A stretch of DNA of 42,829 bases from a virus (IMGVR_UViG_3300032212_000699:1-42829), one strand, 5' to 3'. Positions 1 through 42,829 are shown, numbered from the stretch's first letter. A program made the numbers and translations. Notes: generated by a model from the letters alone, not told the origin.

Positions 1-83
1 TCAATCACTTGCAGAGCCATGTTGACCAGATGCAGACCAAGCGGCGGCGGACTTTTCGCCTGCGCTGGTGTTGTTGTTGGGTA
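1..83. repeat. Terminal direct repeat, copy 1 (circular-contig overlap)
   Basis: Bases 1-83 (tcaatcactt...gttgggta) are identical to 42747-42829 and include the int stop codon. Confidence 0.95.
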
Positions 84-1176
84 TGTACCTGGCGTAAGTG
101 TCTGCGGTGAAGCGCCATGATTTGTGGCCTGCTTGTTCGGCTACCCACATGGGGGATTCTCCAGCCATCAGGGCGGTTGATATGCGAGTGTGGCGGCATT
201 GGTATGGGTAGCGGTAGCGTACGCCTGCGCGTTTTAGAGCGGGTTCCCACATGGTTTTTCGGATGGGTTGGTCGCCTGTCCAGCGCTCGCTGGTTCTGGG
301 GTTCTGGAAGATTTCCTCGCCTTTGAGGTATGTGTGAGATTTCTGGGCTTTGAGTGCAGTGATTGCGTATTCGTCCAGGTCAACGAATCGTTCGCCTGCT
401 GAGGTTTTGGTGTCTTCGAATTCACTTGCCGCTTGGGTGAGGGCTTTGTTGATGCATGCTCTTTTGTTGATTAGGTCGATGTCTGGCCAGTCGAGTGCGA
501 TGAGTTCTGAGGGGCGTAGGCCTGTGCGTAGCCAGAATTTCACCATGTTTTTATTTTGACCGGTCAGGATGTTGATGATTGCTTGTTGTTCATCGTAGCT
601 GAATGGGTCGATCTTGTTTACTTTTCGGGGTGAGCCTCGTTTCTGTCGTTTGATTTTCCAGCCAGCTAGCGGGTTGATTTCGATAATCTCATCTTCCACG
701 GCATCATCCAGTGCAACGCGCATGGGTGACATGACATTGCCCATTGTTTTGGCAGATATGTCTTTAGTGGTAGCCCATTCTTTGGCGTGGATGCGCTTGA
801 AGCCTGATACGGTTAGGTGTCCGAAGGCGGGGATCAGCTGGTTTCTGATCATCTTTCGGTAGCCATCCCACGTCGATGATTTGAGGTATGGCTTTACCGA
901 TTGCAGCCAATTCTCCAGATAAATGTTTAGCAGTAGAATGTCACCTGGTTGATGGGCGAACAGCTGTGCTTTCTTGCTGCCAGGAAAGTGGGTGATGTAA
1001 TTGAATGAGCCCTCAGCAATCGCCAGTTCAATGCTTGCTTTAAATCGCTCTGCCCAGGCTAAGTTTCTGGGGGTGGGTTCTTTCTTGATGCGCTCTTTGC
1101 AGCGAACTCCTTTGTAGTAGAAGTCTATTTCGATGCTTGATTTGCTGCTTGGCCTAACGCCTTGCCTTCTACCCAT
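1..1176 (-). CDS. int: Phage tyrosine integrase with N-terminal arm-binding domain
   Basis: N-terminal IEIDFYYKGVRCKE arm-binding motif; catalytic motifs TGLRPSEL, YQCRHT, AGH...YARY; 3' end abuts attP across the circular junction. Confidence 0.95.
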   Translation of the reverse strand: MGRRQGVRPSSKSSIEIDFYYKGVRCKERIKKEPTPRNLAWAERFKASIELAIAEGSFNYITHFPGSKKAQLFAHQPGDILLLNIYLENWLQSVKPYLKSSTWDGYRKMIRNQLIPAFGHLTVSGFKRIHAKEWATTKDISAKTMGNVMSPMRVALDDAVEDEIIEINPLAGWKIKRQKRGSPRKVNKIDPFSYDEQQAIINILTGQNKNMVKFWLRTGLRPSELIALDWPDIDLINKRACINKALTQAASEFEDTKTSAGERFVDLDEYAITALKAQKSHTYLKGEEIFQNPRTSERWTGDQPIRKTMWEPALKRAGVRYRYPYQCRHTRISTALMAGESPMWVAEQAGHKSWRFTADTYARYIPNNNTSAGEKSAAAWSASGQHGSASD

Positions 1177-1376
1177 TTGTAATATTCCTCAACATTGATT
1201 TGGCGGCGTTTGTCTGGATCTAGGATCCAGATTGTACCTTCTTGCCACTTGCCTGCTTTGATTTTAGAGTTAATGGCCTCATTTGAATAGCCAGACTCCT
1301 CGCAGAATTTACTTTGTAGTAGCCATTTCAATGACATAGTGGTTGCTCGCTGCTTGTAGCCATCTCGCTTCCTCAC
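1125..1376 (-). CDS. xis: Excisionase
   Basis: Small winged-helix-like protein (KFCEESGYSNEAINSKIKAGKWQEG...INVEEYYKWVE) overlapping the int start. Confidence 0.8.
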   Translation of the reverse strand: MRKRDGYKQRATTMSLKWLLQSKFCEESGYSNEAINSKIKAGKWQEGTIWILDPDKRRQINVEEYYKWVEGKALGQAANQASK

Positions 1377-1693
1377 ACTCTTAATATTCTGGTTGGCATG
1401 CTTTTGGCTGAGTGTTCATGCCAGTCATGCCAGCCGCCTCTAACGTTCTGTTTTTCACCATTCACAATCGCGCGGTACGAGTTGGTGATGTTTGTTTTGA
1501 ACAGTAGTATTTTAGTTTCTACTGGCTGTTCGAGCTGGAATGACATTGAAGTTATCCAGCCGATAAAGTCTGTGCTTGGTCGATAGATCGGAGGCTCTCG
1601 CATTAGTCGGTCTAACATTTGTATTTCTTGCGACCGTTTTCCCCATGCGCTTAGCTGTTCCGGCGTGGCCTTGCGTAATAAAAACTCATTCAT
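1373..1693 (-). CDS. Hypothetical protein
   Basis: 106-aa ORF whose stop overlaps the xis start (GTGA). Confidence 0.65.
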   Translation of the reverse strand: MNEFLLRKATPEQLSAWGKRSQEIQMLDRLMREPPIYRPSTDFIGWITSMSFQLEQPVETKILLFKTNITNSYRAIVNGEKQNVRGGWHDWHEHSAKSMPTRILRV

Positions 1694-1728
1694 ATTGCAC
1701 CATCCTTGTGCTGTGTTTCCGGTAAGGT

Positions 1729-1747
1729 GGGTAACAACCCGTTAGGC
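1729..1747 (+). other. attI-like simple recombination site heading the cassette array
   Basis: GGGTAAC-AACCC-GTTAGGC: inverted L and R boxes with a 5-bp spacer and no attC stem; the R core GTTAGGCGC is complementary to GCGCCTAAC of attC1. Confidence 0.55.
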
Positions 1748-2059
1748 GCCTGCATCTTTGCGTGTTGGCGTACTGTACGGATCATCGCCCATGCAATAAT
1801 CGTCACACGTGCAATTAGGGTGTATGCATTCAGACTCTTTAACTGGCGTTACCTTTATTTGGTATTTTTTGCCGTTGATTGTCACCTGCTTTTTGGCCCC
1901 GCTGGGGTGGCCGTGCATCATGTGCGAAACAAGAGCGGATACCACATCCGCCTCAGCGTCGCGCTTTTCAAGTGCGATTCCGGCATCCCTGCCGTGGCGG
2001 TAAAGAAAAATTGAATCCGTTAACGGACTATGGCCAATTTTTATATTTTCGAGTTTCAT
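1742..2059 (-). CDS. Cassette 1 hypothetical protein
   Basis: 105 aa, RBS GGAG; stop TAA lies within the GTTA core at 1741. Confidence 0.75.
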   Translation of the reverse strand: MKLENIKIGHSPLTDSIFLYRHGRDAGIALEKRDAEADVVSALVSHMMHGHPSGAKKQVTINGKKYQIKVTPVKESECIHPNCTCDDYCMGDDPYSTPTRKDAGA

Positions 2060-2072
2060 TTTAATCTCCAGC

Positions 2073-2151
2073 GCCTAACAAGGCGCATTAAGTTCGCTCA
2101 CTCTGTTCGCTGCGACGCGCTACCGCGCGCGCCTTATGCGCAACGTTAGCT
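2073..2151 (+). other. attC site 1 (79 bp)
   Basis: R'' GCCTAAC, spacer AAGGC, L'' GCATTAAG ... L' CTTATGC, spacer GCAAC, R' GTTAGCT; one unpaired base in L''. Confidence 0.88.
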
Positions 2152-2436
2152 GCAAAAGCCGTTCACATCTCTTGAGTGCCATCCATAACTAAGGGCGTTA
2201 CTTATAAGTTTTCGGTCAAGCCAGTTTGAAATCTGTTCTGGTAGAGAGTTTTCCCAAGTTTCGCGTTCTTCTTTGGTGTTGAATTCATACAAAACCCAGA
2301 TCTGATCTCCCATTGTTTGTGGTATCCATGCATGGCGAGTGGCAGAAACAGGAACATGAGGTTTTAGTGTTTCTGCTGGTCTTGTGTCGCATTCATATAA
2401 GTCCACTCTTAAAGCGCTAATAGTTTCGTGTTCCAT
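2146..2436 (-). CDS. Cassette 2 hypothetical protein
   Basis: ATG at 2436 after GGAG; stop lies inside R' of attC1. Confidence 0.75.
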   Translation of the reverse strand: MEHETISALRVDLYECDTRPAETLKPHVPVSATRHAWIPQTMGDQIWVLYEFNTKEERETWENSLPEQISNWLDRKLISNALSYGWHSRDVNGFCS

Positions 2437-2458
2437 CTTTTTCTCCAATTAAAATTAC

Positions 2459-2582
2459 AGCTAACAATTGGCTCCAAGGGAGCAATGGCCGCGGCGTTTC
2501 TTGTCTTCGTTAAAGCTCAGTGTTTCAATTGTTCTCGGTTAGCTCAGTGTTGGCCATCGCCCCCTGAGCCTGTGCGTTAAAT
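2459..2582 (+). other. attC site 2 (124 bp)
   Basis: AGCTAAC AATTG GCTCCAAG ... CCTGAGC CTGTGC GTTAAAT, with an internal stem ATGGCC/GGCCAT. Confidence 0.85.
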
Positions 2583-2780
2583 ATCTTTCAGCCACTGTGC
2601 CAAAGTTGGGCCGCGTTTATCGCGTAGCCAGCACAGTAGCTCCATCAAGCGCATGGCGGCGTTATCTGGCCGCCGCTCACCGCGCTCCCATTTGCTCCAC
2701 GTCATGGGGTGAACTCCCATCGCCTGAGCCATCTCCCGCTGGGAGAGGCCCAGTTTTTCCCTGACATCAAATGGCGTCAT
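2577..2780 (-). CDS. Cassette 3 XRE/HTH_3 protein (antitoxin-like)
   Basis: REKLGLSQREMAQAMGVHPMTWSKWERGERRP is a typical HTH; stop lies in R' of attC2. Confidence 0.85.
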   Translation of the reverse strand: MTPFDVREKLGLSQREMAQAMGVHPMTWSKWERGERRPDNAAMRLMELLCWLRDKRGPTLAQWLKDI

Positions 2781-3016
2781 TAGCCGTTACCATTAGGATT
2801 AGATGGGGCGCGCTTAAAAATTGCTACGCCTGATGGAACACCAAATTCTTCACGAACTTCCCTGTTGAGGTTTTTACCGGCATTCCGGCCATGAGCGCGA
2901 GGATTAGACGCGATGGAGGCGCGAAGGCCAATTTTTGACTTCAGGTTGGAAAGTTGCTCGGCACTCAAATTAGTTTCAGCCCATTCTTTGCATTCATTTG
3001 TAAGCTGGATGTTCAT
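2780..3016 (-). CDS. Cassette 3 hypothetical protein coupled to the HTH gene
   Basis: 78 aa, RBS AGGAG, TAATG overlap with the HTH gene. Confidence 0.75.
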   Translation of the reverse strand: MNIQLTNECKEWAETNLSAEQLSNLKSKIGLRASIASNPRAHGRNAGKNLNREVREEFGVPSGVAIFKRAPSNPNGNG

Positions 3017-3066
3017 GTCTTTTCTCCTTGATTCCGGCTTGGCCTTATTGCCTGCCTTTGATTATT

Positions 3067-3094
3067 AGTATAACCCAATGGGTTGCCGTGTCAA
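3067..3094 (-). promoter_or_regulatory. Sigma70 promoter with operator palindrome inside cassette 3
   Basis: Minus strand TTGACA-16 nt-TATACT; inverted repeat AACCCAATGGGTT (3072-3084) in the spacer. Confidence 0.7.
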
Positions 3095-3109
3095 GAATCA
3101 AAAAGAGAA

Positions 3110-3158
3110 ATTTAACAATTAATTCCAGCGGATAAACCGCTGAATACGTGCGTTATAT
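3110..3158 (+). other. attC site 3 (49 bp, minimal)
   Basis: ATTTAAC AATTA ATTCCAGCGG ATAAA CCGCTGAAT ACGTGC GTTATAT; canonical extra C in L''. Confidence 0.85.
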
Positions 3159-3169
3159 GCTATTCATGG

Positions 3170-3511
3170 TTAGTAGCATTCAGAGAAAAGGGCGTTACCT
3201 TTCTCAGTTGTTTTTTGCCATTGCTTAACAAGTTTTTTGTAGTCATCAGCCAACTTTCCGAGCTTTGCGCCTATCTTCACTTTTTTGTCTATATCTTTGC
3301 AGGCGTTGAATTCTGGTATCAGCTCATTTTGAGCGTTTAAATTGTCTTCAATTGCCTTGCTTATTGCTTCTGACTCAGCGTCGTTTTTGTTGTTTCTAGA
3401 TTCAAAATAGATTTGCGCTGCTTGATCTCTAATGCGCCCAGAATGGTCACACCTATTAATCAAAGTTATCAGCTCTGACTTTGTCAGTTTTTCAAAAGGG
3501 ATGTTTTTCAT
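3170..3511 (-). CDS. Cassette 4 hypothetical coiled-coil protein
   Basis: Likely ATG at 3511 (MKNIPF) after GAGG. Confidence 0.72.
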   Translation of the reverse strand: MKNIPFEKLTKSELITLINRCDHSGRIRDQAAQIYFESRNNKNDAESEAISKAIEDNLNAQNELIPEFNACKDIDKKVKIGAKLGKLADDYKKLVKQWQKTTEKGNALFSECY

Positions 3512-3523
3512 ATCCAGCCTCGC

Positions 3524-3649
3524 ATATAACAATGCAAATTCACAAACGACCGTGGCCCGCGTTGCTTGTTTGAATTGTCAATTAAATTAATGTTCATCGT
3601 TGTTGTCTATTTCGGTGTTGCCCACGGCGTGTGATTTGCGCCGTTATAT
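3524..3649 (+). other. attC site 4 (126 bp)
   Basis: ATATAAC AATGC AAATTCAC...CCGTGG / CCACGG...GTGATTT GCGCC GTTATAT. Confidence 0.85.
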
Positions 3650-3835
3650 TTCGCTTTTACTGTTATCTGGCAATAGGTTAAAGGCTGCCTCTTTCATTTG
3701 GTCAACCAGATACTCAAGGTCTGATAAGCTTCTATGGTCAAACCTTAAATACCCACCTTGCCCGTCATTAATTTCACACCAACAAGGGTGTGGTGCGCCT
3801 ACGCTGCCTGTAAAATTTCCAACTTTCTTTTCCAT
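3644..3835 (-). CDS. Cassette 5 hypothetical protein
   Basis: ATG at 3835 after GGAGG; stop lies in R' of attC4. Confidence 0.72.
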   Translation of the reverse strand: MEKKVGNFTGSVGAPHPCWCEINDGQGGYLRFDHRSLSDLEYLVDQMKEAAFNLLPDNSKSEI

Positions 3836-3848
3836 TCTCGCCTCCAAA

Positions 3849-3934
3849 ATATAACTAATCATTCAACCAGACGGTCATGTCTCCGTCTGCTTCCTGCAAG
3901 GGCATCATGCCGCTTGGTTAATTCCACGTTATGC
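3849..3934 (+). other. attC site 5 (86 bp)
   Basis: ATATAAC TAATC ATTCAACC ... GGTTAAT TCCAC GTTATGC; extra C in L''. Confidence 0.88.
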
Positions 3935-4174
3935 CTTTTCCCCGTGGATATCCGGGAAATGCTTTTCTATTTCTCTTGCAGTGTCGAAATCGGGGCAGAT
4001 AATAATTTCTCTGCCATCCTTTAGCGCGATATTCCCCGGTCTATTTCCGTGACCGCAGCAGCTCGCAACAGTTTCAATGCCGCAATCGTTTAGCGATTTC
4101 ACCAGCGGCTTTATGCATTCATCAATTCCGTTATTTATTTTATTGCAATCGTTATTTCCGCATAAGTTACTCAC
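3929..4174 (-). CDS. Cassette 6 small Cys-rich protein with Tyw3-like motif
   Basis: GIDECIKPLVKSLNDCGIETVASCCGH; stop lies in R' of attC5. Confidence 0.72.
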   Translation of the reverse strand: MSNLCGNNDCNKINNGIDECIKPLVKSLNDCGIETVASCCGHGNRPGNIALKDGREIIICPDFDTAREIEKHFPDIHGEKA

Positions 4175-4175
4175 C

Positions 4176-4361
4176 CTAATGCACCTCCCTGTGTGTAATT
4201 ATTCTTGCGCCGTCTGTATGCTCAATTTCAGGGTCACACCAACAATTAGCGCCATTTTCCAGATCATGCTCTGGGTAGCAGTCGGGCATAACTACACGCT
4301 CGTTCTGATCCGCTTTGTCAGCGTTTGTGGTTGGTGTTCCATGTTCGTTGCTATCACTCAT
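4176..4361 (-). CDS. Cassette 6 hypothetical protein starting inside attC6
   Basis: 61 aa with H...CWCDP...H motif; RBS GAGGA and ATG lie within attC6. Confidence 0.7.
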   Translation of the reverse strand: MSDSNEHGTPTTNADKADQNERVVMPDCYPEHDLENGANCWCDPEIEHTDGARIITHREVH

Positions 4362-4413
4362 AATCTCAATCCTCAGTTGTTCAGGTCGCGGCCAGCACAG
4401 CTACACGTTATAC
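4286..4413 (+). other. attC site 6 (128 bp)
   Basis: GCATAAC TACAC GCTCGTTCTG ... CAGCACAGC TACAC GTTATAC. Confidence 0.8.
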
Positions 4414-4416
4414 CGC

Positions 4417-4689
4417 TTAATCAAATTCTATATATTCATCTCCAGAATATGTATGTAGGTAAAATGTTGGCAGCGGTCCATTTCTAAACATCAACATTTG
4501 TTCGTCTGGAATATTACTCAATATTTCCCGTAGCTCTCCGACTGTTGTTGGTTGGCCAATTTCATACCTAAAACTTTTAGGTGGCGACCCGATAGCTTCT
4601 GCTCCAGTCGGTATAACTAAACGCTCTACGCCGACACTTCGCGTCGGTGTTTCATCGTTCTTTCTGGCTTCACTATTTCCGGTGGTCAT
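4417..4689 (-). CDS. Cassette 7 hypothetical protein starting in the half attC
   Basis: ATG at 4689 (MTTGNS) after GAGGA; ERLVI is encoded across L''/R''. Confidence 0.7.
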   Translation of the reverse strand: MTTGNSEARKNDETPTRSVGVERLVIPTGAEAIGSPPKSFRYEIGQPTTVGELREILSNIPDEQMLMFRNGPLPTFYLHTYSGDEYIEFD

Positions 4690-4700
4690 AGTTAAATTAT
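4611..4700 (+). other. Half attC site 7 (R''/L'' only; right end approximate)
   Basis: GTATAAC TAAAC GCTCTACG is present and complementary to GTTATACCG at 4407; no matching L'/R' before the ssb stop at 4724. Confidence 0.6.
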
Positions 4701-4723
4701 CCTCGCTCTTTCGGGTACCCTGG

Positions 4724-5185
4724 CTAAAACGGGATATCATCATCGAACTCATCAAACCCTTGTGCAGGTGCTGGGCTTTGATTGCTCGGTGCTGCGCTGC
4801 TTTGGTTTTGATGCTGGTTTTGTCCGCTGCTGTTACCTGGTGCGCCTTTGCTATCGAGCATTTGCATTTCGCCGGCGATGATTTCGGTGGTGTAGCGGTC
4901 TTGGCCGCTGGTTTTGTCTTGCCATTTACGGGTGCGGAGGCTGCCTTCTATGTAGACTTTTGAGCCTTTTTTTAGGTACTCGCCTGCGATTTCGCCTAAG
5001 CGATTAAAGAAGATGACGTTGTGCCATTCGGTGCGTTCTTGTTTTTCGCCGGTCTGTTTGTCTTTCCATGATTCGCTGGTGGCGATGGTGACGTTGGTGA
5101 CGGCTGCGCCGCTGGGCATGTAGCGCACGTCTGGGGTTTTGCCCAGGTTGCCAACGAGTATGACTTTGTTAATGCCTCTGGCCAT
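4724..5185 (-). CDS. ssb: Single-stranded DNA-binding protein
   Basis: [15 protein letters not shown]...TEWH...[17 protein letters not shown] and C-terminal DDDIPF. Confidence 0.97.
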
Positions 5186-5616
5186 TAGGTGGTTGCTCCT
5201 GACTGGTTTAGCATGGCGGGTGCTGGCCATGCAGCAAGTATGGCGTTGTCTTCTAGTTCTGAGATGCAGGCGGGGCATAGGCGCTTGCCGTCGTCGTCGG
5301 TGGTGAGTTCTTCTTTTCGTGTTTCTTTGTTGCAGCGCTGGCAGTCTAGCCGGTTGTCGGTGGTGAGCGGTGGTTTTGGGTTGGTTTGGCGTATGATCTC
5401 CAGCCCTTGTTCGGTGATGATGTATGGTACGGCGTGCGTTGATGTCGGGCTCATTCTCTTCGCCGCGGCGGTTAGGATGAAATCACCATTCTCAAGGTAT
5501 TGGGCTGCCGGGCGGTGTTTGTTGTTCATGACGCCCGCTGCTTTCATGGCGATGTACATCGCTGTTGTGGTGACGCCTAGCTCGATTGCGGCCTGGCCTT
5601 TTGTGTAGGTTTTCAT
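5185..5616 (-). CDS. KilAC/antirepressor-C-like protein with C-terminal Zn-finger motif
   Basis: QAAIELGV...[11 protein letters not shown]...ITEQGLE pattern plus CQRC/CPAC. Confidence 0.6.
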
Positions 5617-5617
5617 G

Positions 5618-6025
5618 TTATGCCCACCTGGTGTGGTTGGTTAGTAGTCTTAGGTATAGCGTTTTCTGTTTAGGGCCAAGGCTAGTGAGGTCGGTTAGTT
5701 TGATCGACTGTCGGCGCTGCTTGCATAGCGCTTCTGCGTTTTTCGCGTTGTGAAAACTGACGAGTAGGCATAGAAAGGTGGCATCTTTTCTGGTAATTCT
5801 GTTGATGATGCTTTTAATGCGTCCGATCGCTGGTGGCAGGGCGCGATGGCTTTTTACGTTGTCTAGCCTTGTTGCTATGTCTGGGTATATGCCAAATAAC
5901 CCGGTGCGACCGGTTTGCCGCTCTATGTAAATGACTGATTCTAGCCACGCTTCACAGAACGCCTCGCGCGGGGTGGTGATACCATCCCGCTCTTCGGGTT
6001 TTAGTGCGAGAAGCGCGGCGCTCAT
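5618..6025 (-). CDS. Hypothetical protein
   Basis: 135-aa ORF tightly packed in the leftward operon. Confidence 0.65.
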   Translation of the reverse strand: MSAALLALKPEERDGITTPREAFCEAWLESVIYIERQTGRTGLFGIYPDIATRLDNVKSHRALPPAIGRIKSIINRITRKDATFLCLLVSFHNAKNAEALCKQRRQSIKLTDLTSLGPKQKTLYLRLLTNHTRWA

Positions 6026-6252
6026 TACTCAGCGACCTGGCTGGGGAATTGTACTACGTTGGTGATGTTGCCGATTCTACCCATGACGCGTTTATTGGCG
6101 CTGTTGCGCAAAGGAGTGGGTGCTGCTGGCACCTGCTTAACGTAGGTAGTGATTTCGGCCGGTGGAATCACCAGAGCCTCACTGATGCTGCGCAGTAGGT
6201 TGCTGAACATCAGCTGGTTGGTGTGGCTGGGTAGTGTTATGACGAGTTCCAT
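6025..6252 (-). CDS. Hypothetical protein
   Basis: 75 aa, RBS GGAGG, TAATG overlap. Confidence 0.65.
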   Translation of the reverse strand: MELVITLPSHTNQLMFSNLLRSISEALVIPPAEITTYVKQVPAAPTPLRNSANKRVMGRIGNITNVVQFPSQVAE

Positions 6253-6263
6253 GGGTGCCTCCG

Positions 6264-7058
6264 TTATGCGCTGAAGTTGCCGATGTATGCGTTAATTTCT
6301 TCGAGTGTTTTTTCTTTTAGCGTGTCTTTAAATTCCTGCGCGACTGCTTCCTTGTGGACGTCTAGCTGGGTGATGCGCAGTATGTAGCGTGGGTTGTCGG
6401 TATCTGCGTGGATGCTTAATCGTAAGGTGTATTCACGCTCGCTGAGGTCTTCGTATGGTTTGCATTTGAATATGAATGCGGCGGGCAGGTTGTCGCCTTT
6501 TGCCCCGATTTTTTCAAGTGAGCTTTTGGATGCTGCGAGGCTACCGTGTTCGTGTTCGCCTCTTTTAATAGCCTCAACGGTAATTTTTCGAATGGAATTG
6601 ATGGCTGTTTTTGTGTCGATTTCGCCGTCGTTCTCATCGATGGCGGTGATGTAGTCGCGCCAGTCTTCTAGCCACTCCGACAATGTTTTTTGGTCGGTCT
6701 TATTGCAGTTGATAGATAACATCGCGCTGTAGGGTGCGCTCTTTGTGAGGCAGAGTATGGCGGTGTGCTCTGCGTGGCCGGGTTTGGCTTGATTGCCGAG
6801 GTCAAAAAATGCGACGGCCGTCATGTTTTCAGCACCGATGAATAACTGCTCTGCGCCGGTGTTGATGTAGTCGGCAAAGTCCATCAGTGATGATGTGGTC
6901 ATGCAGCCCTTGAAGCGGCTGCGCTGTTTTTGAAACTTCTCGAGTGATTCTAGTTTTAAGTTGCTAGCGATGGCGATAACCGGCGTATCTGCCTGTTCAA
7001 TTTGGGTGACTGTTGCGGCAAGGCTTTCAATTTTTTCTATGGCTGAACGGTCGATCAT
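6264..7058 (-). CDS. DUF2303 (YfdQ-like) phage protein
   Basis: SLEKFQKQRSRFKG...FDLGNQAKPGHAEH...QKTLSEWLEDW...LPAAFIFKCKPYEDL. Confidence 0.85.
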   Translation of the reverse strand: MIDRSAIEKIESLAATVTQIEQADTPVIAIASNLKLESLEKFQKQRSRFKGCMTTSSLMDFADYINTGAEQLFIGAENMTAVAFFDLGNQAKPGHAEHTAILCLTKSAPYSAMLSINCNKTDQKTLSEWLEDWRDYITAIDENDGEIDTKTAINSIRKITVEAIKRGEHEHGSLAASKSSLEKIGAKGDNLPAAFIFKCKPYEDLSEREYTLRLSIHADTDNPRYILRITQLDVHKEAVAQEFKDTLKEKTLEEINAYIGNFSA

Positions 7059-7060
7059 GA

Positions 7061-7420
7061 TTATTCTCCTTGTGATTTTTTGATGTAGTCAGGCGCTGTT
7101 GCGCTGGGCATCATTGAAAGTTGGTCGATAGGGTAAAGCGTGATCTGGCCGCCCTGATTGACGAACATGGGAGTTGATGTTTTATCGTTTTCACCCTGTG
7201 TGCCGTTTGCGGTTGGTTTTTTATATACCAGCTCGTGGTCCACTGTGACTTGCGCGCTGTTTTCAATGCGCTTGAGTGTGAGGTTGATTGAAATCTTGCC
7301 TTCTCTGCCGTGATGGATGACACCCGCTGCCACATCTGAAAGCGTGTGAGCTATTTTTTGGTCGAATACGCCGCCGTATAAATTGGCGAGAAATTCCTGT
7401 ACCTCTGTTGGTGTGGTCAT
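7061..7420 (-). CDS. YfdP-like phage protein (DUF2303 partner)
   Basis: FLANLYGGVFDQKIAHTLSDVA...TPMFVNQGG; usual neighbour of DUF2303. Confidence 0.75.
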   Translation of the reverse strand: MTTPTEVQEFLANLYGGVFDQKIAHTLSDVAAGVIHHGREGKISINLTLKRIENSAQVTVDHELVYKKPTANGTQGENDKTSTPMFVNQGGQITLYPIDQLSMMPSATAPDYIKKSQGE

Positions 7421-7546
7421 ATTTCCCCTCCTGTTGTTTGGTTTTACTAAGCCCCGGCCCTCGACTACGCGAGAGGCTGAGCCTGTGACACCTCAACCTT
7501 TAACCCTCAGTGCACAGTGGCGGGGTGGTGTGTTGGCGTGGGAGTA

Positions 7547-7588
7547 ATGGTGTACAATCGTGCAGTATATGTCAAGAACAATTGTGCA
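7547..7588 (-). promoter_or_regulatory. PL-like promoter with two repressor operators
   Basis: Minus strand TTGACA (7575-7570)-17 nt-CACCAT; operators TGTACAATCGTGCA 7551-7564 and AGAACAATTGTGCA 7575-7588. Confidence 0.75.
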
Positions 7589-7723
7589 CTTTTATAAAAA
7601 AAGTTAGACTGAGTGTTGATTAGGGTATGGCGGGCTGTGCCGAGTTAAGCGGTTGCGTGATGTAGTGCCAGGAGGCAGGTAATTACATCGCCTGCCTGCT
7701 CGAGTGATTTTTTATAAAAATAA

Positions 7724-8083
7724 TTGGAGAAGGTTGTGGATAAAGATGACGTTAAAAGTGTAGTTAAAAACTACCTGAAATCAGAAGAGGGCAGGTTATT
7801 GATACTGGAACTTATAGCGGGCGAAGCCGGTGATGATGCTCTTATTTTTTCTTCTTCTCAAATAAATCAGATTTATCAATCCCGGAAATCAATTCCAGGC
7901 AAGAATACATGGAAGATAGACGTTAATGGGAATAAGGTTGCTTTTGCACGATTACATAATGACCGTGTTATTGAGGCTTACGCTCCTGTTTCTTTAGATA
8001 AGGCGAGCATTTATGCCGCCTCTATTATTCATGGTTATCAACCACCACGTTCCCTTGTTCGTCTCGATAAACCGATTGATTAA
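7724..8083 (+). CDS. Hypothetical protein (immunity-region moron; start uncertain)
   Basis: AT-rich 119-aa ORF converging on and overlapping the 66-aa ORF. Confidence 0.55.
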   Translation: MEKVVDKDDVKSVVKNYLKSEEGRLLILELIAGEAGDDALIFSSSQINQIYQSRKSIPGKNTWKIDVNGNKVAFARLHNDRVIEAYAPVSLDKASIYAASIIHGYQPPRSLVRLDKPID

Positions 8084-8225
8084 ATTCGACCTGAACCAGA
8101 TCATCGGCACGCTGCTTTAATCTGTAGAAGTCTAGTGTGGAGAAGTCTAGCCACGTGTCGTCATCATAAGCGTTGAGCATGTCTTTGAAGGTTCCAACGG
8201 TAATAGAGGGTTTGTATTTTTTCAT
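8025..8225 (-). CDS. Hypothetical protein downstream of cI
   Basis: 66-aa ORF starting 20 bp after the cI stop. Confidence 0.6.
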   Translation of the reverse strand: MKKYKPSITVGTFKDMLNAYDDDTWLDFSTLDFYRLKQRADDLVQVEFNQSVYRDEQGNVVVDNHE

Positions 8226-8245
8226 TTTGATTGCCTTTGTCCCTT

Positions 8246-8599
8246 TTACTTTTTGTCGTTACTGTATTTAGCTTCTTGCTCGGCCACTCGGTTGATGTAG
8301 TCGCGGCCCTGTTGCGATGAGCTGGTATAGTTGTTGATTAGTGTTTGCAGATGGCCGTTCTTTATGAGGTCCGTCTGTAAGTTCGGCATGATTAGTTGCC
8401 AGCCGCTGAGTTTAAATGCTTTTGCTAAATCGTCTGCTATTTCGATCGATGGCTTTCGGTCGCGGTTTAGAATGAAGTGAATCATTCTGAGTGATACGCC
8501 GCTTTTTATTGCCAGCTCTTTTTTTGACATGCCAGTCACCAATAAAAGAGCATTTATATTTTGAATGAGTGTTTCGGATGATGCTGGTCTTTTGTTCAT
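8246..8599 (-). CDS. CI-like repressor (XRE HTH, no S24 peptidase domain)
   Basis: GMSKKELAIKSGVSLRMIHFILNRDRKPSIEIADDLAKAF; divergent from cro; likely start MNKRP. Confidence 0.85.
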   Translation of the reverse strand: MNKRPASSETLIQNINALLLVTGMSKKELAIKSGVSLRMIHFILNRDRKPSIEIADDLAKAFKLSGWQLIMPNLQTDLIKNGHLQTLINNYTSSSQQGRDYINRVAEQEAKYSNDKK

Positions 8600-8624
8600 A
8601 ATCAGTAGCATAGGCTCACTCGCG

Positions 8625-8686
8625 GGAACATTGGTGCAATTCATGTACAATTGTTCTTGACAGTTAAGTGTACAATCGTTCACTAT
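8625..8686 (+). promoter_or_regulatory. OR operator region and PR promoter
   Basis: GGAACATTGGTGCA 8625-38, TGTACAATTGTTCT 8644-57 and TGTACAATCGTTCA 8669-82 match the PL operators; TTGACA at 8657-62. Confidence 0.8.
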
Positions 8687-8693
8687 TCGGGGC

Positions 8694-8894
8694 ATGGAAA
8701 AAACATTTTTAGAAAAAACTCTCAGAATGGTGGCCTCATCAGATATCCCGGTGGCTAAGATGTGCGCAGAGGTTGGTGTTTCCATCCGCTGGTATTACAA
8801 GCTGACCAGCGGCGACATTAAAGACCCCAGTGTTAACAAGATCCAGCGGCTGCATGATTATCTTGCTGAGCGGCAGAAGCCGGACGCTGCATGA
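8694..8894 (+). CDS. Cro-like HTH protein
   Basis: VAKMCAEVGVSIRWYYKLTSGDIKDPSVNKIQRLHDY. Confidence 0.85.
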   Translation: MEKTFLEKTLRMVASSDIPVAKMCAEVGVSIRWYYKLTSGDIKDPSVNKIQRLHDYLAERQKPDAA

Positions 8895-8903
8895 TGGATA
8901 ACG

Positions 8904-9269
8904 TTATTCGCTTTCCGTTGGAGCGCTGGTTTCCTGAACAGCGGGCGCGGGCGTTAAAGGAGTTCTGGTGGATTCCACCAGCGTCAATCGAGGCTTTTCT
9001 TCGAGGGCATCTTCCTGTGTCACATGCAAAGAGGCCCATGAAATGAGGCGGTCTATCGGGGGTGCGAGTGCGTCGTCATCATTAACGGCATCGCGCTTTT
9101 CTTTGAGGTGGTTGAGTACGCTTTTAATGGCGTGCTGTTCCAGGTTATTGATGGCCCCTGTGAGTAGGCCAATCTGGAAACTCATGATTAAGTTTTCATT
9201 AGTCAGTTCTTCGATGCGTTGGTGTGGTGTGCGGTCTTCTAGCACGGATACCTTCGCGTTATTAGTCAT
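8904..9269 (-). CDS. Hypothetical protein antisense within the early-right operon
   Basis: ORF fills the cro-cII gap; ATG at 9269 after GAGGG. Confidence 0.55.
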   Translation of the reverse strand: MTNNAKVSVLEDRTPHQRIEELTNENLIMSFQIGLLTGAINNLEQHAIKSVLNHLKEKRDAVNDDDALAPPIDRLISWASLHVTQEDALEEKPRLTLVESTRTPLTPAPAVQETSAPTESE

Positions 9270-12326: not shown

Positions 12327-12589
12327 CAAGCGAGCAGCTTGCGACCATCGGTACTAATGAAGCTGTGGCTATAGTGGGTGCTGTGTCGCATGAGCATCTA
12401 AAGCAGTTGTGGGATCGTCGGTTGACGCCTGATGCGCTTGGTTTGAGTGAGGCGCAAGCAAGGGTGCTGTTGATCGCGCAAAATACGGCTTATATGTTCG
12501 CGCAGCAGCAGTTGGTGTTGAGGGCTGCACATGAGGTGTTGGGGATGATGCGGGTTTATGCTGATGTTAATGGTGGGGTGAGTGGATGA
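12323..12589 (+). CDS. Hypothetical protein
   Basis: ATGA overlaps on both sides. Confidence 0.6.
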   Translation: MTSEQLATIGTNEAVAIVGAVSHEHLKQLWDRRLTPDALGLSEAQARVLLIAQNTAYMFAQQQLVLRAAHEVLGMMRVYADVNGGVSG

Positions 12590-14085
12590 ATCAATTCTCA
12601 ATGCTTCAAACCCATGAGCTACGCATTGATCTGTTTGCTGGTGGCGGCGGTGCTTCTACCGGTGTTGAGCAGGCGACGGGTGAGGCGGTTGATATTGCGG
12701 TGAATCATGACCGGGATGCGATCGCGATGCACCAGGCGAATCACCCGGGCACTGAGCATCATGTGAGTGATGTGTTTGAGGTGAGCCCGATGGATGTGAC
12801 TAAGGGTCGGCCTGTTGGGTTGTTGTGGGCATCGCCAGATTGTAAGCACTTTTCTAAAGCGAAGGGTGGTAGGCCGGTGTCGAAGAAAACACGGTCGCTT
12901 GCGTGGGTGGTGATTAAGTGGGCGAAGCTGGCGCGGCCTCGCGTGATTGCGCTGGAGAATGTTGAAGAGTTTCAAAAATGGGGCCCGTTAACGAAGGATG
13001 ATAAACCTTGCCCTGAGCGTGTTGGGCAGACGTTCCGGCAGTGGGTGGGTGAGCTTGAAAGGCTGGGCTATAAGGTAGATTCGCGTGAGCTGCGGGCGTG
13101 TGACTATGGTGCGCCGACTACCCGTAGGCGTTTGTTTCTGGTGGCGCGTTGTGATGGGTTGCCGATTGTATGGCCAGCACCGACGCATGGTGCGCGGGGT
13201 AATCCCCTGGTTAAGCGTGGCAAGTTACTGCCGTGGCGCACCGCTGCAGATATTATCGATTGGCGTATTCCGGTTAATTCGATCTTTATGACTAAGGAGG
13301 AGGGTAAAGCGGCGGGATGTAAGCGGCCGTTGGCGGATAATACAATGCGGCGTATTGCTAGAGGCGTTGAGCGTTATGTGCTGGATGCGGATGAGCCTTT
13401 TATTGTGCCGAATACACAAGGTGGTTTAGTGGTGCCGTCGATTGTGCCGATCGCTAATTATGGTGGTGGGCAGGTGGCTGCTAATGATGCGGGTGAACCG
13501 CTGCGTACGATAACTGCTAATCCTAAGGGTGGATCACATGCGTTAGTCTCTGCCTTCCTGGCGAAGCATTACGGCGGTGGCTATACCGGTGCGGGCATTG
13601 ATGCACGTTCGCCAACCGATACGGTGACGACGCAAGATCATCATGCATTAGTCACCAGTTCAATGATTAAGTTTCGCGGGTCTAATGTTGGTTCTGCAAC
13701 CGATGAGCCGGTGCCAACGATCACGGCGGGTGGTACACACATAGGTGAGGTGCGCGCATTTTTGATGAAGTATTACGGCGCGGGTGAAGGGTCTGAGGTT
13801 GATGGGCCATTGCACACGGTAACGACTAAAGATCGCATGGGCTTGGTGACGGTTGCCGGTACTGATTACCAGATTGTCGATATCGGTATGCGGATGCTTT
13901 CACCGCGTGAGCTTTTCCGTGCGCAGGGCTTCCCTGATGATTATGTGATTGAGTTTGGCGCGGATGGTAAACGACTGAGCAAGGCCGCGCAGGTGCGGAT
14001 GTGTGGCAACAGTGTTTGCCCGCCGTTGGCTAAGGCGATTATTGAGGCGAATGTAGGTGTGACTCAGCGGCTGGTGGCTGCGTGA
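12586..14085 (+). CDS. DNA (cytosine-5) methyltransferase
   Basis: Motifs DLFAGGGG, SPDCKHFS, ENV, RRRLF, RAQGFP, GNSV. Confidence 0.95.
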   Translation: MNQFSMLQTHELRIDLFAGGGGASTGVEQATGEAVDIAVNHDRDAIAMHQANHPGTEHHVSDVFEVSPMDVTKGRPVGLLWASPDCKHFSKAKGGRPVSKKTRSLAWVVIKWAKLARPRVIALENVEEFQKWGPLTKDDKPCPERVGQTFRQWVGELERLGYKVDSRELRACDYGAPTTRRRLFLVARCDGLPIVWPAPTHGARGNPLVKRGKLLPWRTAADIIDWRIPVNSIFMTKEEGKAAGCKRPLADNTMRRIARGVERYVLDADEPFIVPNTQGGLVVPSIVPIANYGGGQVAANDAGEPLRTITANPKGGSHALVSAFLAKHYGGGYTGAGIDARSPTDTVTTQDHHALVTSSMIKFRGSNVGSATDEPVPTITAGGTHIGEVRAFLMKYYGAGEGSEVDGPLHTVTTKDRMGLVTVAGTDYQIVDIGMRMLSPRELFRAQGFPDDYVIEFGADGKRLSKAAQVRMCGNSVCPPLAKAIIEANVGVTQRLVAA

Positions 14086-14096
14086 TGGTTCAATAT

Positions 14097-14126
14097 TTGA
14101 CAGGCGAGCGGGAGTGGGGCTATAGT
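14097..14126 (+). promoter_or_regulatory. Promoter of the c4-ant unit
   Basis: TTGACA-18 nt-TATAGT. Confidence 0.65.
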
Positions 14127-14222
14127 CAGCCCGTCGTCACACAATTGACGACCGGGATTGACAGCCTGAAACTCCGAGCGCTAAGGCGCTCACTCGAAGC
14201 GCTTTTTTTACGTCCAAGATTT

Positions 14223-14298
14223 ATGGTGGGCTGTATGGGGGCGCTTTCGAGCGCGCCGACCCTCGGATCGGTCTGTCAACCCCGTATGGCCTGCCACC
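14223..14298 (+). ncRNA. c4-like antisense RNA (P1 c4 / P4 CI type)
   Basis: Closing stem GGTGGGCTGTATGGGG/CCCCGTATGGCCTGCCACC; internal CTGTCAA (14273-79) is complementary to the flanking repeats GATTGACAGC at 14156 and 14306; lies upstream of ant. Confidence 0.75.
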
Positions 14299-14354
14299 TT
14301 AAAACGATTGACAGCGTTTGTGGCAGTTCTCCAATACAGACCGAGGACGCTGAC

Positions 14355-14921
14355 ATGGAAAATCTCATACCTATCGCTAGTAGATTCATTGCTGGTACCC
14401 CCACTAAAACCGTTAATGGCCGTAAGCTACATTGTTATCTTGAGGTTGGGCGTGATTTCTCAAACTGGATAAAAGGGCGCATTGAGCAGTATGGTTTTGA
14501 AGAGGGTATCGATTACATTGTAACGCTCGCCAAAACGGGCGAACGTCGAAATATCAAAAAAACCAATTACTTTGTCTCGCTCGACATGGCCAAAGAGCTG
14601 GCGATGGTTGAGCGCACTGACAAAGGCAGAGAGGCCCGCCGGTACTTCATTGAGTGCGAGAAGCAGATCAGAGAGCCATCGCCACAGAAAACCCTTCCCG
14701 CGCCCCCTGTGAAGCGACAGCAGCTATTCGTTGCAACGGTGGAGGGTGATAGGGTGGGTTCTATGTTGCCCGTCTCTGATGACTTTATGTTGATTAGCCG
14801 TGAAGAGCTGAATGCGCTGCGCCGTCCGTTTGATTATTTCAATGTCGTGGCCCCTGATGCGGTGGCTGTGTTTGCGGATATCGAGCGACGCCGCGGTGGT
14901 GTTGTGGGTGGTGATCGGTAG
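14355..14921 (+). CDS. AntA/AntB-family antirepressor (in-frame Ash-like upstream extension from 14082)
   Basis: VNGRKLHCYLEVGRDFSNWIKGRIEQYGFEEGIDY...LDMAKELAMVERTDKGREARRYFIECEK. Confidence 0.9.
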   Translation: MENLIPIASRFIAGTPTKTVNGRKLHCYLEVGRDFSNWIKGRIEQYGFEEGIDYIVTLAKTGERRNIKKTNYFVSLDMAKELAMVERTDKGREARRYFIECEKQIREPSPQKTLPAPPVKRQQLFVATVEGDRVGSMLPVSDDFMLISREELNALRRPFDYFNVVAPDAVAVFADIERRRGGVVGGDR

Positions 14922-14923
14922 GC

Positions 14924-15790
14924 ATGGGGATTACGACTAACTGGAATGAGCACGAAGATGCTGCGCTCTATGAGTTACCTCATCGGGCGCAGTTGCTTTA
15001 CTTGCGATGTTTGCGGCGTTACATGGACTATTCGACAGGTGTGGTGGGTCGGTCTCGTGAGGTTAGTCGGGATATGTTCTGTGATGTGCTGGAGGTCTCT
15101 GAAAGTTATACGGCCAATAATCGACGTGCTAAACCGACGTTGCGCGAGGTGCGAATATCGTTGAGCCAATTGGAGCGCGTTGGTTTGATTGAACGGTTGC
15201 CTGGTAGGCGTGTGAGTAAACTGATTGAGACCTATGTTTTTTTCTTGCCTTTGGCAGCATGGGATAATTCCGTATCGAATAGTGACGTCACAGTGACGTC
15301 ACAGTCACGTCACACTAGTCACGTCACCACAGAACCAGAGTTAAAAGAAAATGTTACGCAGAGTGACGTCACAGTCACGTCACAGTCACGTCACACTAGT
15401 CACGTCACACATCCGGTATCCGGTAATACTACTGCTACTACTCACGCGCGCGAGGCTCGGTTCTTTGCGATGCATGAAGGTTGGGTGGCGGATGGTGAAA
15501 GTTTAAAAGCGCATGCAAGGATGCAGGGGGTGTTGATTGACTCTCTGCCGACTGATGGTTATGCGGAGGTGTTGGGTGAGTTTAAGTCTTTCTGGATGGG
15601 GCAGGCTCGTGAAGAGACGCAGGCTGGTTGGGAGGGTAAGTTGGTGAAATCGATTAAGCATAAGTTGAGTCAACCGAAAGGAGGTGGTGATGGGCAGTCC
15701 AGAGCAAGTGGGTGCGGTGGTAAGTCGGGCGCTGACAACTTCATTAGTGGGATCAAAAAAAGAGCCCAGCAACGAGGCGGTGATCAGTGA
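14924..15790 (+). CDS. Replication initiator with DnaT-like C-terminal domain
   Basis: FAMHEGW...LGEFKSFW...QAGWEGKL; contains iterons. Confidence 0.8.
   Translation: MGITTNWNEHEDAALYELPHRAQLLYLRCLRRYMDYSTGVVGRSREVSRDMFCDVLEVSESYTANNRRAKPTLREVRISLSQLERVGLIERLPGRRVSKLIETYVFFLPLAAWDNSVSNSDVTVTSQSRHTSHVTTEPELKENVTQSDVTVTSQSRHTSHVTHPVSGNTTATTHAREARFFAMHEGWVADGESLKAHARMQGVLIDSLPTDGYAEVLGEFKSFWMGQAREETQAGWEGKLVKSIKHKLSQPKGGGDGQSRASGCGGKSGADNFISGIKKRAQQRGGDQ
15281..15408. repeat. Replication-origin iterons: two blocks of four AGTSACGTCAC
   Basis: Blocks 15281-15327 and 15362-15408 are nearly identical and separated by an A-rich spacer. Confidence 0.85.
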
Positions 15791-42702: not shown

Positions 42703-42726
42703 TGGTGGAGGTGGGGGGAGTCGAAC
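42703..42726 (-). other. attP core: 3' end of tmRNA (ssrA)-like RNA
   Basis: Minus strand GTTCGACTCCCCCCACCTCCACCA (T-loop, acceptor 3' strand, ACCA), next to the int 3' end. Confidence 0.82.
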
Positions 42727-42746
42727 TGCCGTCCGTTCTTTTTGAA

Positions 42747-42829
42747 TCAATCACTTGCAGAGCCATGTTGACCAGATGCAGACCAAGCGGCGGCGGACTT
42801 TTCGCCTGCGCTGGTGTTGTTGTTGGGTA
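42747..42829. repeat. Terminal direct repeat, copy 2
   Basis: Identical to 1-83. Confidence 0.95.

Follow-up and report, generated by a model that had tools for sequence, protein, structure and literature searches.

The integron integrase IntI recombines an attC site's folded bottom strand with an attI site, another attC site or a looser attG site (PMC2727003; 10.1101/2022.09.11.507474), the strand being selected by an unpaired base in the L'' box whose identity matters little (PMC2727003); here and below, statements on the literature refer to the accessible portions of the cited sources. Clusters of attC sites lacking integron integrases (CALINs), in which small genes are bounded by attC sites without intI, have already been published from phages, and IntI1 recombines these phage attC sites (PMC9892861). 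Here, we describe an array of this kind in the viral sequence IMGVR_UViG_3300032212_000699:1-42829, a stretch of 42,829 nucleotides that is referred to as the window in its entirety. At positions 1,729 to 4,700, within the leftward early operon of a phage, seven cassettes are delimited by attC-structured sites and carry genes that are reversed relative to those sites. We consider it likely that this locus is an integron-type array without an integrase of its own, built up and rearranged by a host IntI acting in trans.

The window array shares with classical integrons (PMC2727003, PMC5371416, 10.1101/030866) the attC boxes, the unpaired L'' base, the G|TT junctions, the self-complementary cassette ends, and short promoterless genes with a stop codon in the core box. 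It differs from them in lacking intI, in having genes antisense to the sites, in being transcribed from its far end, in a stop codon located in the complement of R' rather than in R'', in a 106-amino acid (aa) gene at the position of intI, and in genes some of which start inside an attC loop. IntI-mediated insertion at genomic GWT sites (attG; 10.1101/2022.09.11.507474) occurs outside attI and offers a route for seeding a phage array, but showed no orientation bias there, whereas all 7 of the 7 units in the window are reversed and related phages keep an attI-like head. The available text on phage CALINs (PMC9892861) describes neither antisense genes nor a conserved docking head or head gene, and the portions of PMC11551772, PMC8618304 and PMC8352920 that were accessible contain nothing on reversed arrays or the head gene. 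In the literature covered, which mostly excludes subscription journals, no description was found of antisense phage cassette arrays, of the conserved head or of the head-gene family.

An initial annotation of the window, made from the sequence alone, had proposed six attC-structured sites and a terminal half site, and all of these were recovered at the same coordinates and with the same boxes. The sites, with covariance-model scores and folding z-scores relative to shuffled sequences, are as follows.

2073 to 2151, plus (top) strand: attC 1; 27.9 bits, fold z -3.0
2459 to 2582, plus strand: attC 2; 23.8 bits, fold z -1.8
3110 to 3158, plus strand: attC 3; 41.3 bits, fold z -3.3
3524 to 3649, plus strand: attC 4, with a long AT-rich loop; 12.6 bits, E 0.81, fold z -1.3
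3849 to 3934, plus strand: attC 5; 32.3 bits, fold z -3.9
4286 to 4413, plus strand: attC 6, weak, its loop doubling as ribosome-binding site and N-terminal coding sequence; 15.6 bits, E 0.16, fold z +0.8
4611 to 4697, plus strand: decayed terminal attC with R'', spacer and L'' intact, L' lost and a possible R' at 4691; R'' matches the GTT at 4407 over 9 bases

Each of the six full sites consists of R'' (xxxTAAC), a 5-nt spacer, an 8-nt L'' with the unpaired base at position 4, a 7-nt L', a 5-6-nt spacer and R' (GTTA). Applied to positions 1700-4720, a strict box scanner found 6 sites on the plus strand and 0 on the minus strand; none of 2000 dinucleotide shuffles of the same segment contained more than 2 sites, and 3618 shuffles of the whole window yielded at most 4 same-strand sites in any 3 kb. 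An attC covariance model, the check suggested in the initial annotation, was built from 26 of 30 candidate bacterial sites with sense genes, which were chosen by the same author's scanner, so that the model is not fully independent of the scanner. It matched all six sites on the plus strand, four of them at E 1.7e-7 to 1.9e-3, and gave a single minus-strand echo of 10 bits, with no match to the terminal half site at 4611. Sites 2 and 4 fold only modestly better than their shuffles, the predicted bottom-strand hairpins have constrained-fold probabilities of 0.003-0.40 in situ, and in sites 1 and 4 the unpaired bottom-strand base is A rather than G and lies inside a TT run. A CALIN is defined by at least two attC sites on one strand within 3-4 kb and by the lack of intI, and the window array qualifies as one. 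No Rfam family was found inside the array. Among the 21 2-kb bins of the genome, the bin at 2001-4000, coinciding with the array, has the lowest G+C content (0.447) and the only negative G+C skew.

Self-complementary G|TT ends are expected when circular cassettes are joined at G|TT. The two ends of a unit had been reported to be mutually complementary throughout the array, and this is true of 7/7 units, with matches of 9, 8, 7, 9, 9, 8 and 9 bases in order; among the 5040 permutations of the ends, only the true pairing reaches this sum. By comparison, the R'' and R' boxes of each integrated site match over fewer bases (5, 4, 4, 7, 5 and 5). Judged from the sequence, the unit ends are the trace expected of circular cassettes joined at G|TT. 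The seven units contain nine open reading frames (ORFs), all on the minus strand as originally annotated.

1742 to 2145, minus strand: cassette 1, 105-aa DUF7446 protein (1742-2059) whose stop codon falls in the complement of the left GTTA; homologue in a phage array (L224)
2146 to 2576, minus strand: cassette 2, 96-aa protein (2146-2436) of no family in Pfam and PHROG scans
2577 to 3152, minus strand: cassette 3, 78-aa protein (2780-3016) and 67-aa helix-turn-helix (HTH) protein (2577-2780; HTH_3 / MqsA-type HTH)
3067 to 3094, minus strand: putative sigma-70-type promoter of cassette 3, 11/12 consensus bases, palindrome in the spacer
3153 to 3643, minus strand: cassette 4, 113-aa protein (3170-3511) of no family in Pfam and PHROG scans
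3644 to 3928, minus strand: cassette 5, 63-aa protein (3644-3835) of no family in Pfam and PHROG scans
3929 to 4407, minus strand: cassette 6, 61-aa ORF (4176-4361) starting inside attC 6, followed by an 81-aa phage protein with a CCGHG motif (3929-4174; 106 viral relatives)
4408 to 4689, minus strand: cassette 7, 90-aa ORF (4417-4689) reading through the decayed terminal site (from the sequence)

Read on the minus strand, each unit presents a GTT core, a ribosome-binding site and a start codon, and in 5/7 units the TAA stop falls in the closing core. Because the reversed layout puts a gene's own attC in front of it, the 61-aa ORF of cassette 6 can start in an attC loop, and both its ribosome-binding site and its start codon lie within the loop of site 6. 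Cassette 3 is laid out like a putative toxin-antitoxin or regulator pair and, like the toxin-antitoxin cassettes of chromosomal integrons (PMC13108822), combines two genes, one of them an HTH gene, with a promoter of its own; in contrast to those cassettes, no known toxin family or fold was matched by the 78-aa partner (no match in Pfam or PHROG, and none in the PDB for its structure model).

Because end complementarity is symmetric, polarity must be read from the unpaired L'' base. The initial annotation had assigned the attC top strand to the plus strand from this extra base, and the assignment is supported both by the convention of attC-aadA7, as printed in the supplement of PMC9892861, and by the covariance model. 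With this polarity, the genes of 7/7 units are antisense to their own attC, in agreement with the claimed inversion relative to bacterial cassettes; compared with a tidy minus-strand cassette, only the interior of attC is reversed. Insertion of the top strand was considered as a cause of this layout and rejected, given that it would flip gene and attC together. As a control for polarity, one degenerate attC pattern and one script were applied to bacterial genomes (at least 126 loci) and to viral contigs (12 loci). Among 76 bacterial cassettes, 32 were sense, 1 antisense and 43 unclear; the 20 viral cassettes found with the same pattern included 0 sense, 17 antisense and 3 unclear (antisense in 6/6 called loci), and 7 more obtained with a second pattern included 0 sense, 5 antisense and 2 unclear. 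Counted by called locus, 17/18 bacterial loci were mostly sense and 9/9 viral loci antisense. The published phage attC cluster MW202573 (L143, 2069-3738) also has genes antisense to its sites in this analysis, though the accessible text of PMC9892861, where it serves as an example, does not remark on the reversal, which the figure in that paper may show. Separately, an Endozoicomonas array (L016-L020) was observed to hold many cassettes of 360-530 bp without an ORF of more than about 60 codons on either strand, which are possibly gene-less.

Replication, rather than transcription, could have selected the inversion, by placing the bottom strands either on the leading template, where cassettes would be stable, or on the lagging template, where they would shuffle at induction, with the genes still kept in the early operon. 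Strand placement relative to replication alters excision rates (PMC5371416), and G+C skew, positive on the plus strand in 20/21 genome bins, suggests that this is mostly the leading strand; the bottom strands would then be on the leading template, the stable setting. Iteron-like 11-nt repeats at 15281-15411, within a replication-initiator-like ORF (14924-15790), would instead send a leftward theta fork across the array, with the opposite effect. That the two replication modes predict opposite effects, and that reversed arrays occur in phages with differing integrases and gene orders, tells against this explanation; it is a serious possibility, albeit well short of probable, which could supplement or supplant the transcriptional reason and is compatible with rearrangement of the array by a host IntI.

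At the left end of the array, where intI and attI would be located in a classical integron, the following features are present.

1373 to 1693, minus strand: head gene, 106 aa, of an unnamed family, in the position and orientation of intI; family hidden Markov model (HMM) score 17 bits, hhalign 60%, E 8.7e-5
1729 to 1747, plus strand: presumed docking site in the position of attI, with TAAC, 5 nt and G|TT at 1741, atypical for the family; the GTT pairs with R'' of unit 1 in a 9-base run

ORF 1373-1693 resembles ORFs at the same position in two other phages, G001 and G442. In a search of 16,489 peptides with a profile of the head family, the two best outside matches were the window ORF (17 bits) and the G001 ORF (14 bits), with the next match at 9, and 0/2000 shuffles reached the score of the window ORF; this weak but specific match points to a divergent member of the head-gene family. 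A scan with the G442 head protein that used protein similarity only retrieved 11 loci, 10 of them distinct. With the query's own locus left out, an antisense attC array lies directly upstream of the head gene in 8/9 distinct loci, the ninth being the exception and a 26-residue partial match; by comparison, 3/80 loci of the cassette 6 family (the best 80 of 106 viral relatives) are in reversed arrays. Across the nine head loci that were inspected, 28-58 nt separate the start codon from the first G|TT, which in turn matches R'' of the first cassette over 6-12 bases, and the conserved stretch between the start of the head gene and G|TT resembles the bacterial attI sites beside intI. In the window, the docking G|TT (1741) is 50 nt from the start of the head gene, and the spacing of TAA, 5 nt and GTT fits some bacterial attI sites; a TAA is so placed at 11/867 GTTR sites of the window. 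The cassettes of the head loci comprise 8 antisense, 1 sense and 3 unclear (n = 12), and the neighbours of the head gene vary, including a serine recombinase, a tyrosine integrase and other genes.

For a head-family member from locus L288, a basic helix, a beta-meander and a closing helix are predicted (predicted local distance difference test score, pLDDT, 82), and the model has no fold match at Z 5 or E 0.001. The head protein has no match in Pfam, PHROG, PDB sequences or the phage collection, and no atlas match of 0.9. The family turned up in one of 400 genomes from a single proteobacterial class, on a short phage-like contig; the same genome bin holds the contig with the head gene and a full IntI, a single case in which the binning may be wrong. 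A search of metagenomes with the 23-nt head stretch gave 4 matches, namely L013, the host contig of the window phage, and three chance matches inside a transporter gene. Given that the head gene is not found in most other viral array loci, it marks one subtype of reversed phage arrays.

The array had also been proposed to be shufflable. Indirect signs of mobility are good, in that one attC body and shared gene families turn up among different neighbours in further phage arrays, but no unit-skipping joint is present in the contigs of run X1. The body of attC 3 is found in G442 at 45/47 bases, from TAAC to GTTAT, between other cassettes of an array with 11 sites and 10 self-matching units, and no other significant shared DNA was detected between G442 and window positions 1000-9000. 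The flanks of this site in G442 are letter-identical to loose ends at 3113 and 3156 in run X1, so that the window phage and G442 are both present in that run. Run X1 further contains a second attC 4 allele with 9 differences, contigs that leave attC 4 directly after GTTA, and a variant of attC 6. The gene of cassette 1 reappears in L224 as a discrete reversed cassette of 242 bp with other neighbours; for two other viral relatives of this gene, no complete cassette was found. BLASTN of positions 1700-4720 against 50,697 phage and 72,556 plasmid records gave no match, a DUF2303 search gave no relatives, and a search combining an inverted gene start with the attC pattern returned only one viral locus (L011), which has no array. 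A second phage (L149/L257, G001:C1:14200-21300) was also seen to have ssb immediately before a reversed array, which comprises about 15 sites, an HTH pair like that of cassette 3, ORFs that begin in attC loops and a cassette 6 homologue, and which has a head gene and an attI-like head.

Relatives of the cargo of the window array are mostly free-standing phage genes. Among the best 80 of the 106 viral relatives of the cassette 6 protein, 1 gene, besides the 3 in reversed arrays, precedes a sense attC, and its closest relatives, at 67-73% identity, are phage genes that stand free and lack attC. A tree built from 72 distinct rows and 81 columns places the window protein with three such free-standing genes (support 99/96), and a single clade of the three reversed-array members is rejected (approximately unbiased test, p-AU 0.0004). 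Repeated packaging of phage genes with attC is the simpler reading, although the alignment is short and repeated loss of attC is indistinguishable in it from repeated gain. Three relatives of the cassette 6 protein (P0015, P0021 and L220) have extra N-terminal stretches, that of L220 being read out of an attC loop, and attC-derived N-termini may be common in proteins of uncultured phages. ORFs resembling DNA methyltransferases, as judged by eye, were noted in four reversed arrays (L280, L282, L283 and L292), and none was recognised among the window cassettes.

Several observations weigh against a working array of this type. The covariance model gives sites 4 and 6 low scores (12.6 and 15.6 bits), and the fold of site 6 does not surpass that of its own shuffles (z +0.8). 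The polarity count depends on how genes are called: a longest-ORF rule, which is noisy for short units and was replaced after its result by a rule requiring a ribosome-binding site, gave 18 antisense against 10 sense viral cassettes (for bacteria, 73 sense and 11 antisense, n = 84). Nor do all viral records share the reversed polarity: in 3 of the 12 viral pattern loci, a single attC follows a sense gene, one of these loci adjoining an intI fragment and having the same coordinates as a bacterial contig of the control set, and the published TJE1 phage cluster, the main example of PMC9892861, is sense. The head protein of the window is only a distant member of its family (21% identity to that of L288), and no head-family ORF was found in the viral array loci L270-L284, which are truncated at 4 kb, except L280. 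Under the family head matrix, the docking site of the window ranks 717/1549, and because of this failed fit it may be damaged or of another type; the CCTTG element upstream of it is present, about 13 nt out of register. Finally, the contigs of run X1, from which rare variants are dropped, showed no excision, circle or reordering of the units and no joint that skips one, and no close relative with another cassette order was found.

Some of these observations would also be accounted for if the array were a frozen relic, built by IntI in an ancestor or another phage, acquired as a block and now inert, with a broken docking site and attC sites decaying into coding or spacer DNA. The atypical head site, the divergent head protein, the weak site 6, the terminal site that is read through by an ORF, and the lack of unit-skipping joints in the run X1 contigs all fit such a history, as does the distribution of related integrases: among 10 viral loci with relatives of the window Int (39-51% identity), 0/10 carry an array. 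(Further relatives of Int, at 38-50% identity, occur in 9/400 genomes of the single class searched.) A relic is nevertheless unlikely, given that each of the seven end matches remains perfect over its 7-9 bases, that a co-occurring phage has a site with 96% identity to attC 3, and that a second attC 4 allele and contigs leaving attC 4 right after GTTA are found in the same run.

As for a recombinase, the initial annotation had recognised only an ordinary phage Int in the window. This is confirmed: Int is of the lambda type, with an arm-binding domain and, in the alignment, gaps opposite the IntI-specific insertion, and the IntI model TIGR02249 has no match in the window. An intI gene beside the array, which defines a complete integron, is absent, and none of 15 other viral records with attC sites, most of which are incomplete, exceeds the IntI cut-off. 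The best Pc-like match reading from the attI position into the array (1540-1569, plus strand) has 9/12 consensus bases, lies on the opposite strand to the array genes, and belongs to a set of 8 such matches for which 10.3 are expected by chance. Recombination by a phage-encoded enzyme, either Int or the head protein, without a host IntI appears very improbable: int and xis do follow immediately downstream of the head gene, in the window as in several loci of the head family, but Int has no IntI insertion, the neighbours of the head gene vary, and the head protein, at about 100 aa with a helix/beta-meander/helix model, is too small for a tyrosine recombinase. Least credible of all is a fragment of a host chromosomal integron captured by a prophage, for although such captures are known (PMC9892861) and cassette 3 resembles the promoter-bearing pairs of chromosomal integrons, nearly all bacterial cassettes belonging to the same attC family are sense, the relatives of the cargo are phage genes, the array is inside the early operon rather than at the prophage edge, and the sites are heterogeneous.

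If the locus is, as we favour, an array rearranged in trans by a host IntI, the enzyme would insert cassettes at the left (head) end, which is the downstream end of the early transcript. With entry at the head end, as in any integron, older units would be pushed toward ssb as their sites decay, and the oldest would be the rightmost, whose site is the decayed one. Given a docking position at the transcript's downstream end, the phage promoter would read only those cassettes that have a gene antisense to attC. The phage would thus keep a mirror-image pool, with host cassettes silent in the phage and phage cassettes silent in a host integron, and the attC in front of each gene could supply a ribosome-binding site and first codons, as in cassette 6. 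The cargo would consist of ordinary early genes of phages, packaged on more than one occasion with attC sites. The head gene would be part of the platform, and its product would most likely be a small protein with an accessory or regulatory role and not a recombinase. Both IntI and prophage induction are often under SOS control.

More tentatively, and with considerable doubt, these arrays may be pictured as the phages' own integron platform, which would comprise a conserved attI-like head, a dedicated head protein for recruiting or directing the host IntI, and a mirror-image pool made by attaching attC before ordinary phage genes. Polarity would then act as a firewall against host anti-phage cassettes, and a gene known in both a free-standing and a cassette-borne version, like an attC found on two genes, would be a stage caught in the genesis of cassettes. 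Integrons have lately been viewed as libraries of anti-phage defences (10.1101/2024.07.02.601686, 10.1101/2024.07.02.601719); if the preferred reading is correct, phages put that same enzyme to work on accessory genes of their own, and the phage and host pools are kept apart. One attC body on two genes in co-occurring phages, together with repeated entry of one gene family into cassettes, would provide substrates for the question of cassette genesis, and the head gene encodes a single small protein whose deletion or expression could be assayed. The analysis of the window adds a same-pattern polarity control, a shared attC body, a cargo tree and a delineated head family.

The window is a 42.8-kb lambda-like temperate phage whose leftward early operon runs from ssb through the nine small ORFs and ORF 1373-1693 to xis and int. 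The genes flanking the array and the head gene are as follows.

1 to 1176, minus strand: phage integrase, a lambda-type tyrosine recombinase with an arm-binding domain, not IntI (Pfam PF12167, PF14659, PF00589)
1125 to 1376, minus strand: excisionase (PHROG 9668, E 2.9e-13)
4724 to 5185, minus strand: ssb, directly upstream of the array, as it is in phage G001 (PF00436)

The host contig L013 contains the same sequence at 100% identity, adjoining host genes, with a tmRNA-like (transfer-messenger RNA-like) 3' end at the junction. The 127 bases of the left junction are repeated at the right end of the window (42703-42829 vs 1-83; L013:4237-4363), in the arrangement of an attP site, and the attP-type join at the right end consists of the int end, the tmRNA-like 3' end and a phage arm. 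This repeat suggests that excised phage DNA was present, the alternative being an assembly loop. The record is classed as a provirus of 74% completeness, but with this attP-type join recurring at the left junction the genome appears to be complete and may be excising. Elsewhere in the window, a C4 antisense RNA with its a1/b1 target (14120-14301, plus strand) is located upstream of an antirepressor-like ORF (14082-14921), these together making up a P1/P7-type immunity module, and a 499-aa ORF (12586-14085, plus strand) resembles DNA cytosine methyltransferases, as judged by eye. In the host DNA adjoining the prophage, L013:156-2555 encodes a type I restriction subunit of the EcoAI family.

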